32,000 bases of DNA, from contig NZ_CP060530.1 of the NCBI RefSeq assembly GCF_016806735.1, positions 720,001 to 752,000 of the forward strand. Reading direction: 5' to 3'. Source of the stretch: Candidatus Micrarchaeum sp. (GTDB lineage: Archaea > Micrarchaeota > Micrarchaeia > Micrarchaeales > Micrarchaeaceae). The notes under the pieces were generated by a model. The model had not been told where the DNA came from and did not search any database. It worked only from the letters and a program-made list of their open reading frames with translations. Shown piece after piece: positions 26,256 to 29,835 of the stretch (within the stretch, counting starts at the first letter, position 1; each line of letters starts with the position of its first letter). The position numbers were made by a program, and so were the translations under genes.

Positions 26256-27542
26256 TCAAACTTTAACAGGCTCAGCATACAATGCATTGGATGTTGCATT
26301 ATAAATCCTTGCCGTAATCCTTGAGCCAAGGGAAAGGCCGGAAGCGCTTGCAGCCCTAGGAATTACTATCTGCCTGTAGCTGTCGTCCCTTCCATTAACG
26401 GAAGAGGCATTGCTTTCTGTAAGAAGCACGCTTTCTTCGGCTCCTATTGCGCCTGCGTTCTTGGACGCCTGCATGGCCCTGACCTCCCTGGAAAGCTCCG
26501 CGCTTCTCTCTTTTATAACATTGTCATCAAGCTGCTTCATTCTTGATGCGGCAGCGTGCGGCCTTTTTGTGAACTTTGATATGTTCGTGACTTCAGGCTT
26601 GAATTCCTTGAGGGCTTCCAGCGTTGCGTCAAAGTCGGCTTCGGTTTCCCCGGGGAAGCCCACTATTATATCCGTCTCTATCGTTATGTTCTTCACTTTT
26701 TGCCTTATCTCTTTTACAATTTCGAGGTACTTTTCAACAGTATAGCCCCTGCGCATCGATTCCAGGACGGAATTGCTTCCTGACTGCAGAGGTAGATGCA
26801 GGAACTTGTATACGTGCTCGTTTTGCATTGCATCTATCAGCTCGGCATAATACCTGTGCAGATGCTCTGGATTCAGCATTCCGATCCTTATCCTAAAATC
26901 TCCTTCGAAAGAGCATGCCTTTCCGACAAGCTCGGCTATGTTGGTGCCCTTGTCTATGCCGTAAGCCCCGGTATCTTGCGCCGTGAGCTCGAGCTCCTTT
27001 GCCCCGTTCCTTATGCTGTAGGATATTGCATTGAGTATTCCGGCCTCGGAAAAGCTGTTGAGTCTGCCCCTTGCGAATTTCGTTTCGCAGAACGAGCACG
27101 AGCTCAGGCATCCGTCGCTTAGCGGTATCTTGGCTATTATCGATTTGCCAGGCACGTAGAGCCCTATCCTGTCGTACCTGCTCTCGCCCATCAGCATGAC
27201 TCTTTTCCCCGAAGCCGTATCCATTACTGCTTGGGGCATTCCAGCTATGTTCTGTATCTTGGCTATGCTTGCGCTTGGGGCATACCTGCTTATTATGTCG
27301 CTGTTGGCGCCTGCCATGCACCCAGTGACGAGAATCTTCTTGCCGCTTTCCTCAAGCTTTGAGAGCCTGTACGTTATCCTGTTCTGGGTTGCGCCTTTCA
27401 CGGTGCACGTATTGAGCAGGACAACGTCCGCGTCGGCCTCACTGGAGCAGGTCTTTATACCTGCGCCACCCATTGCGCTGGCTATGAGCTCGCTGTCGGC
27501 CTGGTTGAAAGTGCATCCGTACGTCTCTATGTATACCTTCAA
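26256..27542 (-). CDS. mtaB: radical-SAM methylthiotransferase, MiaB/MtaB (CDKAL1-like) family
   Basis: N-terminal UPF0004 cysteines (YGCTFNQ, NTCTVK, TGCM), a radical-SAM CLSSCSFC (C-x3-C-x2-C) motif and a C-terminal TRAM-like segment. TTG start at 27542. Confidence 0.9.
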   Translation of the reverse strand: MKVYIETYGCTFNQADSELIASAMGGAGIKTCSSEADADVVLLNTCTVKGATQNRITYRLSKLEESGKKILVTGCMAGANSDIISRYAPSASIAKIQNIAGMPQAVMDTASGKRVMLMGESRYDRIGLYVPGKSIIAKIPLSDGCLSSCSFCETKFARGRLNSFSEAGILNAISYSIRNGAKELELTAQDTGAYGIDKGTNIAELVGKACSFEGDFRIRIGMLNPEHLHRYYAELIDAMQNEHVYKFLHLPLQSGSNSVLESMRRGYTVEKYLEIVKEIRQKVKNITIETDIIVGFPGETEADFDATLEALKEFKPEVTNISKFTKRPHAAASRMKQLDDNVIKERSAELSREVRAMQASKNAGAIGAEESVLLTESNASSVNGRDDSYRQIVIPRAASASGLSLGSRITARIYNATSNALYAEPVKV

Positions 27543-27681
27543 AAACGCACCATAGGTATTGGTTGTTATTGATTATTAATAGCCGTAAAAAGCTAAAACA
27601 CTTATGAAAGGAAACGTTCTTCTGATTAGTAGTTTGGCCACAATTTAAGCTTTTACAGGACTATATGCACAAAACGCAGAA

Positions 27682-27693
27682 ATATATTTAAAG
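27682..27693 (+). promoter_or_regulatory. TATA-like box for micro-ORF A
   Basis: atatatttaaag lies about 47-58 nt upstream of ATG 27740. It is conserved in unit B as gtatttaaag. Confidence 0.4.
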
Positions 27694-27739
27694 ACTGCTG
27701 TTCCATTTTGCTTTGAAATATAAAATATTGGGTGAAAAA

Positions 27740-27817
27740 ATGAAGGGAGGAACAAACGGCGGGAAAATCATAGGAGGACCACACAGCGGAATCGTTGGAG
27801 GACCACACGGAGGATAA
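27740..27817 (+). CDS. Gly/His-rich micro-protein (25 aa), MKGGTNGGKIIGGPHSGIVGGPHGG
   Basis: Hand-translated and too short for the track. GGTGA lies 6 nt upstream of the ATG. A TATA-like box is upstream and T-runs are downstream. The first 8 codons and the whole 5' region are duplicated at 28138-28230. Confidence 0.45.
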   Translation: MKGGTNGGKIIGGPHSGIVGGPHGG

Positions 27818-27825
27818 TCTAAATA

Positions 27826-27858
27826 TTTCTTTTACTTTTTCTATCAGATATTTTTATT
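27826..27858 (+). terminator. oligo-T tracts (archaeal-type terminator) after micro-ORF A
   Basis: tttcttttactttttc and tttttatt begin 9 nt after the stop codon, on the plus strand only. Confidence 0.35.
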
Positions 27859-27865
27859 GTTAGTT

Positions 27866-28129
27866 CTATTTGTATAATGTTCTTTTCTGCGGTTGTATGG
27901 ATTTTCTCTTTACAAGGCTAAGGTATTGATCACTGTAAAGATTGTCGAACTTCCTGCAGATATTTATTATTATAGTTTTTAGGATTAAAGAATCAGATTT
28001 TACGCCTTTTATTACCTTAAAAAGATCGTTTTCTATGGCCTCAGTATCACTCTCTTTTAATACAGGAGATATATGGAATATTCCGTCAGGGGTTTCAATG
28101 TCGTAGGTTAGGATTCGCCTTTTACAAGG
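27866..28129 (-). pseudogene. 5'-truncated remnant of an Lrp/AsnC-like gene (paralogue of the C-terminus of 28301-29716)
   Basis: An 87-codon open frame without a start: PCKRRILTYDIETPDGIFHISPVLKESDTEAIENDLFKVIKGVKSDSLILKTIIINICRKFDNLYSDQYLSLVKRKSIQPQKRTLYK*. It aligns with ...DMETPDGIFYLFPVLKEEDIEKIKGELSETIKGVKFDSLIIERMIIGNICYRKFDNLYSDQYLALVKKKLISAQKRTLY... Confidence 0.6.
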
Positions 28130-28151
28130 TTATACCCCAAAACGCAGAAAC

Positions 28152-28161
28152 GTATTTAAAG
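28152..28161 (+). promoter_or_regulatory. TATA-like box for micro-ORF B
   Basis: gtatttaaag occupies the same position relative to ATG 28208 as the box in unit A. Confidence 0.35.
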
Positions 28162-28207
28162 ACTGCTGTTCCATTTTGCTTTGAAATATAGGATATTGGG
28201 TGAAAAA

Positions 28208-28237
28208 ATGAAGGGAGGACCAAACGGCGGAAGATAA
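28208..28237 (+). CDS. truncated copy of the micro-ORF (9 aa, MKGGPNGGR)
   Basis: It has the same SD and start context as 27740. Relative to copy A, 48 nt carrying both GGPH repeats are missing, with the frame kept. T-runs lie at 28242-28260. Confidence 0.25.
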   Translation: MKGGPNGGR

Positions 28238-28300
28238 GGAATTTTATTCTCTTTTGTTCTAATTAAGTTTAGATTTTATTATGTCGATTTATTAGGTATT

Positions 28301-29716
28301 TTAATTATTATTTGATTTAGTAATATATAACGTTCTTTTCTGTGCCGATATAAGTTTCTTTTTTACCAATGCCAAGTATTGATCACTATAAAGATTGTCG
28401 AACTTCCTGTAGCATATATTTCCTATTATCATTCTCTCTATGATCAGCGAATCAAATTTAACTCCTTTTATTGTTTCGGAAAGTTCGCCTTTTATTTTTT
28501 CGATGTCTTCCTCTTTTAATACTGGGAATAGGTAAAATATCCCGTCTGGGGTTTCCATGTCGCATATATAAGAGAACCTGCTTATTGCTTTATTTGGTTC
28601 ATTTATTATATACTTGTGATGGTTATATTTAGAATTTATAAATTTTTCCTTATTCGTTATATTTTCAAGTATTATGGCATCATATCTTTTGTTTATAGTG
28701 GTTACTGTAAGCGTAGACCTTAATATTGCGCTCTTTCCTTCTTCGTTCATTAAATCTTCATAAGCCCTTTTTGCACTGCCTATTGGAAGATTATATTTTC
28801 TGTCTATCGATGCAAAACTTTTGGTACTGTCTTCGTTCAATTCACAGAGAATGGCGTATTCCCTGTACATCAAGCTAGATGCACCGGGTTTTTCTCCGTG
28901 CTTCTTCCGACGCCAGACCTTCTCTTTTAGAACATCGAAAAACTCTTGGCGTAATGGTACAAATCCATAATCCGTCGCAATTGGAGTTATGTACCACTCT
29001 GACTCTATGCCCTTAAGCACTGCTGCTGTCCTTATGCTGTCTAGGACATCTGCAACCACGTTGTTGTTTTCCGCAACACAGAAAATAGCAAGATCGTATG
29101 TACCCTTGGCAGCAAGGGCAAGCTGCACTCTTGGGTTCTTTTCCAGTGCTGCCCTTACTGCTTCGTGGCTTGGCTTGTCGCTTATGAATTTTGCGAGAAT
29201 CATGTACTCGGAAAAGCCAAGGTTGTTCATGTTAAGCTCGAGCGTGTACTTTATCCCCAGGATTCTTTCCAGCCTTTTTATCCTGTATTCCAGCACATGC
29301 AGCGGTATTCCCGTAATTGAGGAAATCCTTGCATGGGGAAGCCTCGAGTTCATGCTTAATGCTTCCAGCAGCAGAATGTCTTCGTTGCCAAGAGCCTCGT
29401 CAAGCGTTCTTTCAGAAGCGGCTTTCCTTTTTTCCTCAAGTTCCCTCTGGTGTTCAATCATTTTATTGTATTCGAATTCCAGGGCCTTAAGCCTTGCTTC
29501 GCTCTGTTTTGGCTTTGCAGGTATTACTACGCCGTTATCGGTTATCCATCCTATATAATGAGTTATCTTTACCGGCTTTTTTCTTTTGCTGTCCCATTTG
29601 CTCGTGGCCTCAAATACGCAGAATCTTTTGTTTAAGAATTTCAGCTCTATATGCCCGCCGTAAGACTTTTTGAGCTCATCGAAGACCTCTTTTATCTTTA
29701 TGGGAGCTTCCGCCAT
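28301..29716 (-). CDS. two-module Lrp/AsnC-family transcriptional regulator with an extra N-terminal domain
   Basis: Module 1: DILLLEALSMNSRLPHARISSITGIPLHVLEYRIKRLERILGI (HTH) followed by a RAM-like region with PRVQLALAAKGTYDLAIFCVA. Module 2 begins at M283: YAILCELNEDSTKSFASIDRKYNLPIGSAKRAYEDLMNEEG plus a RAM-like C-terminus. Residues 1-100 have no assignment. Confidence 0.85.
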   Translation of the reverse strand: MAEAPIKIKEVFDELKKSYGGHIELKFLNKRFCVFEATSKWDSKRKKPVKITHYIGWITDNGVVIPAKPKQSEARLKALEFEYNKMIEHQRELEEKRKAASERTLDEALGNEDILLLEALSMNSRLPHARISSITGIPLHVLEYRIKRLERILGIKYTLELNMNNLGFSEYMILAKFISDKPSHEAVRAALEKNPRVQLALAAKGTYDLAIFCVAENNNVVADVLDSIRTAAVLKGIESEWYITPIATDYGFVPLRQEFFDVLKEKVWRRKKHGEKPGASSLMYREYAILCELNEDSTKSFASIDRKYNLPIGSAKRAYEDLMNEEGKSAILRSTLTVTTINKRYDAIILENITNKEKFINSKYNHHKYIINEPNKAISRFSYICDMETPDGIFYLFPVLKEEDIEKIKGELSETIKGVKFDSLIIERMIIGNICYRKFDNLYSDQYLALVKKKLISAQKRTLYITKSNNN

Positions 29717-29808: not shown

Positions 29809-29835
29809 CTTTTAAAAAATGCGATTTTTTAAAAG
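29809..29835. promoter_or_regulatory. perfect 12-bp inverted repeat with a 3-nt spacer (candidate operator)
   Basis: cttttaaaaaat-gcg-attttttaaaag (arms checked by hand). It lies in the 307-bp divergent intergenic region, between two copies of the TATA-like 11-mer attttatttat (29727-29737 and 29869-29879). Confidence 0.45.

Follow-up and report, generated by a model that had tools for sequence, protein, structure and literature searches.

A glycine-rich micro-ORF family convergent with double Lrp/AsnC genes in Micrarchaeaceae

Bacterial attenuator leader peptides, such as those of hisL, pheL, thrL, and leuL, are encoded by very short ORFs that are preceded by a strong ribosome-binding site, enriched in one amino acid with a codon or isoacceptor bias, otherwise free in residues and length, and followed soon after the stop codon by a termination signal. 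The same traits were found in the micro-ORFs described here, which were identified in Ca. Micrarchaeum harzensis A_DKE and related archaea: Gly accounts for 49% of the family residues after Met1, and GGA for 76% of the family Gly codons as against 32% genome-wide. However, alternative terminator/antiterminator hairpins are lacking (RNAalifold on 28 copies returned 0 pairs), and there is no co-directional biosynthetic operon, the next gene being a convergent regulator in 39 of 39 informative cases. In addition, the host is an archaeon with oligo-T termination, and the same amino acid is enriched in all paralogous copies.

In RRNPP-type and related peptide-receptor cassettes of Gram-positive bacteria and phages (Rap-Phr, PlcR-PapR, and AimR-AimP 'arbitrium'), a small peptide gene is likewise tightly linked to the gene of a cytoplasmic regulator, many paralogous pairs carry pair-specific peptide variants, and the active peptides have 5–10 residues. 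Those peptides are processed from precursors of 40–60 residues with export signals, whereas the ORFs considered here have 5–13 codons and no signal peptide; their receptors have TPR folds and are usually encoded co-directionally, whereas the partner here is predicted to have an Lrp/AsnC fold and is always convergent. FFRP proteins (FL11, LrpA, LysM, and Ss-LrpB) share HTH and RAM modules with this partner, and their palindromic boxes resemble the candidate operator found here, a 13–20-bp AT-rich dyad just past the TATA box. The partner differs from them in being one chain that holds two modules and an N-terminal domain without a clear structural relative. We know of no micro-ORF that has been described as a member of an Lrp regulon.

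Functional ORFs of 6–11 codons are represented by the MAGDIS hexapeptide uORF of the S-adenosylmethionine decarboxylase mRNA and by insect tal/pri; the latter, which encodes 11-residue peptides, also resembles the present family in carrying tandem similar micro-ORFs on one transcript, and its output acts on a transcription factor. Both are eukaryotic and unrelated in sequence, and the uORF controls a downstream ORF on its own mRNA, which is absent here. The microcin C gene mccA (7 codons) is of similar, heptapeptide size and has a ribosome-binding site of its own, but its peptides carry a C-terminal Asn and undergo adenylation by the adjacent MccB, whereas C-termini vary in the present family; no MccB-like enzyme gene was found among the ORFs annotated around the window copies. 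Type I toxin-antitoxin and other cis-antisense pairs are marked by overlapping convergent transcripts; for the module described here, a putative overlap is implied by gaps of 7–80 nt and by the placement of T runs. A type I toxin is small and hydrophobic, whereas the peptide here is hydrophilic, Gly-rich, and not a membrane toxin. The module, which may be regarded as kin to regulatory micro-ORFs and cis-antisense pairs, has traits of leader peptides, peptide-receptor cassettes, Lrp operators, and micro-uORFs, but defining features of each are lacking.

Anatomy of the window locus

The A_DKE genome is a single contig of 989,838 bp with 45.8% G+C, and the window, i.e., the whole stretch of 32,000 nt that was analysed, covers its positions 720,001–752,000; window coordinates are used below. 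The first of two plus-strand copies of the element (copy A) begins with an upstream box, cTTTTAC (27650–27657), located approximately 30 nt 5′ of the TATA box and characterized by near-invariant T11, T13, and A14 in alignment A2. It is followed by a candidate archaeal promoter at 27675–27692, composed of a BRE-like cgcagaaa and the TATA box TATTTAAA (27685–27692). This block is the best-conserved part of the element among 28 in-genus and 53 family copies, and its consensus suggests a promoter function. Between the TATA box and the Shine-Dalgarno (SD) sequence, a dyad-symmetric block, GTTCCA...TGAAAT (27700–27729), was found as a candidate operator; it overlaps the transcription start, which is predicted at approximately 27715 from the TATA spacing.

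The SD sequence GGTGA (27731–27735) is separated by 4 nt (aaaa) from the ATG of micro-ORF A (27740–27817), which consists of 25 codons and a TAA stop (27815–27817) and encodes MKGGTNGGKIIGGPHSGIVGGPHGG. The nucleotide motif ggaggaccacac is present twice in it, at 27773–27784 and 27797–27808. A repeat search detected three units of 24–28 nt (family D3), which lie in tandem in one frame at 27740–27763, 27764–27790, and 27791–27817. Downstream, a plus-strand oligo-T tract of T3, T4, and T5 (27826–27840) is a candidate archaeal terminator of the micro-ORF transcript, and its T4 and T5 runs (27830–27840) are located 13–25 nt past the stop. The initial annotation, which was made from the sequence of the window, had already pointed out the Gly-rich ORF with its repeated nucleotide motif, the TATA-like box, and the oligo-T after the stop, all of which were confirmed. 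It had also recognized the SD, although with a spacer of 6 nt, and its Gly content of 48% is corrected here to 44% (11 of 25 residues).

The second copy (copy B) has its promoter, operator-like block, and SD at 28138–28207 on the plus strand. The repeat shared by the two copies, which are 95% identical over it, spans 93 nt in copy B (28138–28230) and reaches into the 8 initial codons of micro-ORF B (28208–28237), a 9-codon ORF of family-typical length encoding MKGGPNGGR. Convergent with it on the minus strand lies the partner gene (28301–29716), which encodes a 471-aa double Lrp/AsnC protein; the gap between the two stops is 63 nt. Between copies A and B, the minus strand at 27866–28105 retains a double-Lrp gene's 3′ end as a remnant of 79 open codons without a start codon, with 68% identity to residues 386–464 of the neighbouring 471-aa protein. 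With two nearly identical promoter-to-start copies and a 3′ remnant in between, we therefore concluded that the region is a tandem duplication of the element, the micro-ORF, and the last ~80 codons of the neighbour gene. The duplicate of element plus gene fragment is also present in the relatives G003 and G005. Independent partial duplicates of other regulator paralogs were observed in G003 (contig C29) and G002. Such recurrence indicates either that the 3′ ~240 nt of the regulator gene are functionally tied to the micro-ORF or that tandem duplication is recurrent at this site. Two further features of the surroundings were recorded. Copy A adjoins a divergent radical-SAM (MiaB-like) gene; a radical-SAM gene also flanks the A_DKE element that has no partner regulator, and this correspondence is probably a coincidence. 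The region upstream of the partner gene contains a perfect AT-rich palindrome at 29809–29835, cttttaaaaaat gcg attttttaaaag, which is unrelated to the dyad of the micro-ORF promoters.

Micro-ORF B is 48 nt shorter than micro-ORF A, with the frame kept. This difference had been described in the initial annotation as an in-frame loss from copy B; the difference itself holds, but its polarity is the opposite, the family norm being 5–13 codons. The counterpart of copy A in G003 has 9 codons (MKGGPNSGG) with identical downstream sequence, and in G005-like genomes both copies are single-unit. On metagenomic contig L086, which carries a regulator with 89% identity, these three units are split into ORFs of 8 and 16 codons: MMRGQSGG and a stop, att, and then MGGANSGIVGGPKGGG and a stop, in one frame throughout with a 3-nt indel. 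In more distant relatives, one unit of 8–9 codons occupies the counterpart of copy A. Given the split form in a close relative and the single units in distant ones, copy A is the derived form: 48 nt were gained through tandem duplication in the A_DKE lineage, and an internal stop and restart were lost in A_DKE, leaving an in-frame fusion of three units.

The micro-ORF family and its partner genes

The promoter, leader, and start occur five times in the A_DKE genome, twice in the window and three times elsewhere, where they precede MMGGAGGH, MMGGSQ, and MTGEDSY. BLASTN searches detected 4–6 copies of the element per genome in six of the seven genomes of the genus, and all 28 distinct in-genus copies combined a GGTGA-type SD with an ATG and a short ORF, 5–9 codons long except for the 25 codons of the window copy. 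In related genomes, approximately 50 family copies were found; BRE/TATA, the conserved dyad block, and the ATG were present in every one, and a GGTGA-type SD preceded the ATG in all copies checked but a few. ORF lengths across the family ranged from 5 to 13 codons, as in MGGAGGH, MGGGGGQ, and MKGGPNGGR. All five A_DKE elements (at 277k, 359k, 648k, 747k, and 748k) are on the plus strand, and all partner genes on the minus strand.

A sequence-only model of the element, derived from the in-genus copies, matched 18 of 61 family genomes; one weak match, G020, proved to be the start of an ordinary gene and was left out. A second, broader model gave no match outside the family among 151 genomes of the class. 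In Ca. Mancarchaeum acidiphilum, the ORFs read MEKGPAGGG, MVGGY, and MKGPNGT. In genera that the model had missed, convergent Gly-rich micro-ORFs were recognized behind the regulators: MGGTGGGA, MDGGGPGGG, MYGGATGGGGT, MIGGAGGVGDP together with MGGSAGG, and MDPGHGSTG. The genome-wide background of Gly-rich micro-ORFs, counted without an SD requirement, was 0.009 per 330-nt strand window; when an SD was required, nine entries remained genome-wide, six of which (at four loci) were family members. In total, the module is present in at least 13 of the 29 sampled genera. One unpublished genome (G059), whose genus is otherwise represented, is included in the counts of 61 and 151 genomes and in that of regulator-bearing genera given below, although none of its sequence was drawn on.

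In 44 of 47 copies, a run of at least four T followed the micro-ORF stop (median distance, 19.5 nt), and T made up 45% of the 100 nt downstream; runs of at least five A, which would act as terminators for the regulator, were found in only 10 of 47. Multi-unit arrays with two to six units 5′ of one regulator were detected at four loci, namely L047 (G064:C29:12967–16066), L057 (G073), L058 (G071), and L100 (G075). Some array units have a full promoter, and others only an SD, an ATG, and a stop; examples are MGGAGGC, MGGSGGC, MGGSSGS, and MDGGASGS in G064 and MNGGNGGGG followed by MNGGNSGGG in G073.

No hydrophobic segment or export signal was found in the family ORFs of 5–13 codons, and the C-terminal residue is variable (G, D, Q, T, H, C, S, Y, A, K, R, or N). 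These compositions bear on the metal-binding role that the initial annotation had considered, taken here as binding through the His residues of the GGPH repeats. Copy A does contain two GGPH motifs, and His or Cys is the last residue of some members (MGGAGGH, MGNAGH, MGGGGGC, and MGGSGGC); nevertheless, His and Cys amount to 2% and 1% of the family residues, the wide range of C-termini speaks against a metal ligand there, and GGPH is limited to the lineage of the A_DKE strain. Metal binding is thus unlikely as a family trait, and a His-based metal-binding peptide is very improbable as the explanation of the locus. As for the statement that no described family looks like this ORF, it holds for Rfam and for the literature searched, in which no description of such ORFs or of their pairing with Lrp genes was found; the A_DKE paper (PMC8975820) makes no reference to Lrp, small RNAs, or peptides. 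The ORF does, however, have relatives: micro-ORF A is an enlarged member of a large, conserved, and previously undescribed family.

The partner protein was examined by structural modelling. Its AF2 model (pLDDT 88) consists of an N-terminal β-rich domain of helix and β-sheet (residues 1–66), a long helix (73–102), and two HTH+RAM modules (105–251 and 284–431). Its profile matched PH1519/FL11 (3.4e-14), LrpA (1.4e-11), and AsnC (7.6e-8) in the PDB over residues 104–235, whereas single-sequence Pfam scores were under the gathering threshold. In a Foldseek search with the model, the fused two-module NirDL ranked first, followed by many Lrp/AsnC regulators with TM scores (target) of 0.7–0.78. As modelled, the partner has the Lrp/AsnC (FFRP) fold, with a winged HTH followed by a RAM domain (β-α-β-β-α-β). 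NirDL, the best structural match of the two-module part, is a siroheme decarboxylase and hence an enzyme, and a function other than regulation is therefore conceivable. The N-terminal domain had no Pfam or NCBIfam match; when residues 1–104 were folded alone (pLDDT 84) and compared with 48,161 chains, the best Z score was 5.2, within noise.

The regulator family was found in 25 of 29 genera, with 1–12 copies per genome. A_DKE has three full paralogs with mutual identities of 28–31%, as well as one fragment, and an element is located tail-to-tail with each. Among 46 distinct elements, 39 had a paralog or its 3′ fragment at most 1.5 kb downstream, and the orientation was convergent in all 39, with stop-to-stop distances mostly of 7–80 nt; elements without a paralog downstream were mostly at contig ends. 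A link to the adjacent regulators had been suggested in the initial annotation and is strongly supported by this pairing, the convergent form of which had not been foreseen. The nucleotide identity of the element between paralogous loci (72–95%) far exceeds the identity of the partner proteins (28–31%), which argues that the element is strongly constrained or homogenised between copies. These results showed that the micro-ORF and the convergent double Lrp/AsnC gene form a two-gene module that is inherited and duplicated jointly, and it is very likely that this is a real functional module in which the micro-ORF is coupled to the regulator.

Several individual loci deserve mention. In G044, seven of the 12 double-Lrp matches of the genome are clustered within 23 kb (contig C11, 34.7–57.9 kb), and a locus of this cluster (L107) has the convergent micro-ORF MDGGGPGGG. 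The third Mancarchaeum paralog, P0031 (L041, 2821–3320), has two tRNA-like genes downstream and no element; the micro-ORF is therefore not kept by every paralog. The sole A_DKE element without a partner regulator (L003, G000:C1:357593–360665, element at ~1486–1595) precedes MTGEDSY, which contains one Gly; its neighbours are a radical-SAM gene on one side and, on the other, a P-type ATPase gene, of which the C-terminal part adjoins it.

Evidence bearing on translation

The 3′ end of the A_DKE 16S rRNA is ...GAUCACCUCA, the UCACC of which pairs with GGTGA(T), and GGTGA(T) is therefore the canonical SD of A_DKE. We note that the end is not ...CACCUCCU, and that the 16S rRNA gene (G000:C1:203642–205644, L085) has 2,003 nt against a model of 1,478 positions, implying an insertion of ~500 nt. 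The complementarity of the micro-ORF SD to the 16S 3′ end amounts to 5–6 bp, at the correct spacing before the conserved ATG. Where the usual ATG is mutated, an in-frame ATG is found one codon upstream (ATG AAG/AAT/GAC/GAT/GAA GGA GGA), and tandem units regenerate complete sets of SD, ATG, and stop. Along the edges of the minimum spanning tree, 46 synonymous and 83 non-synonymous codon differences were counted in the ORF frame, with an excess at third positions, as compared with 17/124 and 31/107 in the shifted frames on the same edges. Several peptides recur unchanged although their coding DNA differs at one to five positions, stop-codon swaps included; for instance, the encodings of MGGGGGQ differ at 5 nt and those of MGGSSGS at 4 nt. 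In distant genera, Gly is retained with mixed GGT, GGC, GGA, and GGG codons.

This codon-level comparison, which had been proposed in the initial annotation, was favourable in its comparison of frames but not in the narrower test: non-Gly codons in close pairs showed no significant synonymous excess (6 vs 15, expected fraction 0.16, p = 0.12). Because of this outcome, the coding signal rests on the frame comparison and on the anatomy of the ORF. Third-position freedom in GGN is also expected from a (GGN)n motif of RNA or DNA. Moreover, the nucleotides of the micro-ORF are nearly identical between genera whose regulators share 47–48% identity, and together with the GGA bias this argues that selection acts at the nucleotide level as well. 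Taken together, the micro-ORFs are likely translated, a possibility that the initial annotation had raised; the frame-specific substitutions favour translation but do not prove it.

The same observations can be read in another way, in which the promoter drives an sRNA antisense to the 3′ end of the regulator, or a purine-rich or G-quadruplex RNA, and the frame from ATG to stop is incidental. The conservation of nucleotides including third positions, the GGA bias, and the non-significant test of non-Gly codons are compatible with such an RNA, as is the implied 3′ overlap with the regulator gene, and a two-tetrad G4 motif is present in 30 of 47 ORFs. Nevertheless, the G4 motif is absent from the other 17, and no conserved structure was detected by RNAalifold (0 pairs on 28 copies). 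The fold of 27712–27860, which the initial annotation had called for, was no better than those of shuffled sequences (z −1.67; 12 of 200 shuffles folded equally well), and its pairs simply join the U-rich tail to the purine-rich 5′ portion. No Rfam family was found either: at E values of 10 or less, a scan of 27000–29000 yielded no more than three matches of chance level, far under the gathering scores. An RNA also leaves unexplained the 5–6-bp SD at correct spacing with its conserved ATG, the replacement of a lost ATG one codon upstream in frame, the SD-ATG-stop units regenerated in tandem repeats, and the mixed codons with which distant genera keep Gly. A structured sRNA is thus disfavoured, and a non-coding RNA in general is improbable. 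Two specific forms were considered and set aside: a G-quadruplex, in view of its motif in only 30 of 47 ORFs, and a sponge for the anti-SD, which is weakened in that GGAGG pairs with only 4 nt of the 16S 3′ end (...AUCACCUCA), as against 6 nt for GGTGAT.

Candidate operator and coupling to the regulator

The dyad block begins 6–7 nt past the TATA box and overlaps the predicted transcription start. In the genus Micrarchaeum it has the form ATTCCA-N8-TGAAAT, and in other genera dyads such as CATTCCA-TTT-TGGAATG, CGTTCCA-GTG-TGGAATG, and TTCAAT-TTTGG-ATTGAA are located at the same position. Elsewhere in the A_DKE genome, no such operator-like motif was found; it occurs only at the elements. Archaeal Lrp-type repressors that bind just downstream of the TATA box block the recruitment of RNA polymerase. 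As the dyad overlaps the start site where such repressors act, the partner is the obvious candidate to bind it, and the block is probably an operator for the partner regulator, an assignment that is tentative because the arm spacings differ between genera (3, 5, and 8 nt).

At the other end of the module, the plus-strand T runs often lie inside the Lys/Glu-rich C-terminal codons of the regulator, and the regulator has no T runs of its own ahead of the micro-ORF. With the stops 7–80 nt apart, T runs at or inside the end of the regulator, and none for the regulator itself, the predicted transcripts of the micro-ORF and the regulator are expected to overlap at their 3′ ends.

On this basis, we propose a translated Gly-rich micro-ORF module functionally coupled to the regulator as the best overall explanation, with a probability of roughly 0.55. 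In a more specific form, the partner bound at the dyad would block the recruitment of RNA polymerase to the micro-ORF promoter. When the promoter is free, the transcript from ~27715 would load ribosomes on its 26-nt leader via the perfect SD, and the short, GGA-biased ORF would be translated. This translation may sense the supply of Gly-tRNA or the translation capacity and would set how far the small transcript reaches antisense into the regulator mRNA, and the translation-dependent antisense reach would thereby close a feedback loop between regulator and micro-ORF. This cis-acting loop, which combines a regulator-controlled promoter with a translation-dependent antisense run, is put forward tentatively, at clearly less than even odds. 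The enrichment of the same amino acid in all paralogs, unlike in the amino-acid-specific bacterial attenuators, counts against it, and we know of no archaeal precedent for leader-peptide control of termination.

Another possibility is that the Gly-rich peptide of 5–13 residues is itself the product and acts in trans as a ligand of its cognate double-Lrp protein, e.g., at the RAM-domain interface, by analogy with the peptide-receptor cassettes; the effector peptide considered in the initial annotation is a similar idea. Such a role would agree with the strict pairing with the regulator, with the expansion of the regulators, of which a genome may carry up to 12, frequently in clusters, and with the multi-unit arrays, in which each unit with its own SD, ATG, and stop resembles dosage or diversification of a product. 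Peptide classes of paralog groups, with motifs such as GGPNGG, also persist across genera, as in the group of the window regulator with MKGGPNGGR, MKGGPNSGG, MNGGPNGGG, and MEKGPAGGG. However, the gene of a trans-acting peptide would not require a convergent, near-abutting position in 39 of 39 cases. The ends of the peptide are not conserved (one 25-mer in A_DKE against an 8-mer and a 16-mer in a close relative), the non-Gly residues turn over fast (MGGAGGH, MGGSDGQ, and MGGSGGD beside regulators ~80% identical), and the candidates have no export signal. To our knowledge, peptide ligands of RAM domains have no precedent. We consider a peptide ligand unlikely, but it ranks next after the coupled, translated module. 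The Gly/GGA composition, the tolerated fusion and splitting, and the fast change of non-Gly residues fit a leader-peptide-like sensor better than a defined peptide, and the strict convergent geometry argues for coupling through transcription.

DPANN archaea such as Micrarchaeum have genomes of ~1 Mb and very few known regulatory circuits. Despite these small genomes, 1–12 regulator copies are kept, with a micro-gene beside the regulator in about half of the sampled genera, and conservation of this micro-gene is far stronger than that of the regulator. Genes of 5–13 codons are invisible to annotation pipelines, and the micro-ORFs could represent an unrecognised gene class of Micrarchaeaceae, in which promoter-bearing, SD-led ORFs of 5–13 codons act, through their Gly-rich products or through being translated, in one-to-one signalling loops with double-Lrp paralogs; in this full form the proposal is speculative and rather doubtful. 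If true, the micro-ORFs would rank with the smallest known conserved genes that encode proteins, and they would provide either a leader-peptide-like sensor in archaea or a ribosomally made oligopeptide that serves as ligand of an Lrp/RAM regulator, in each case the first of its kind. Some 60 variants occur naturally, the genomic partner is fixed, and the host is in cultivation and covered by published omics data, so that the function of these tiny ORFs is directly testable. A feast/famine regulator tuned by translation of a Gly-rich leader, if this is how the module works, would constitute a new form of nutrient sensing in an obligate amino-acid-importing symbiont.
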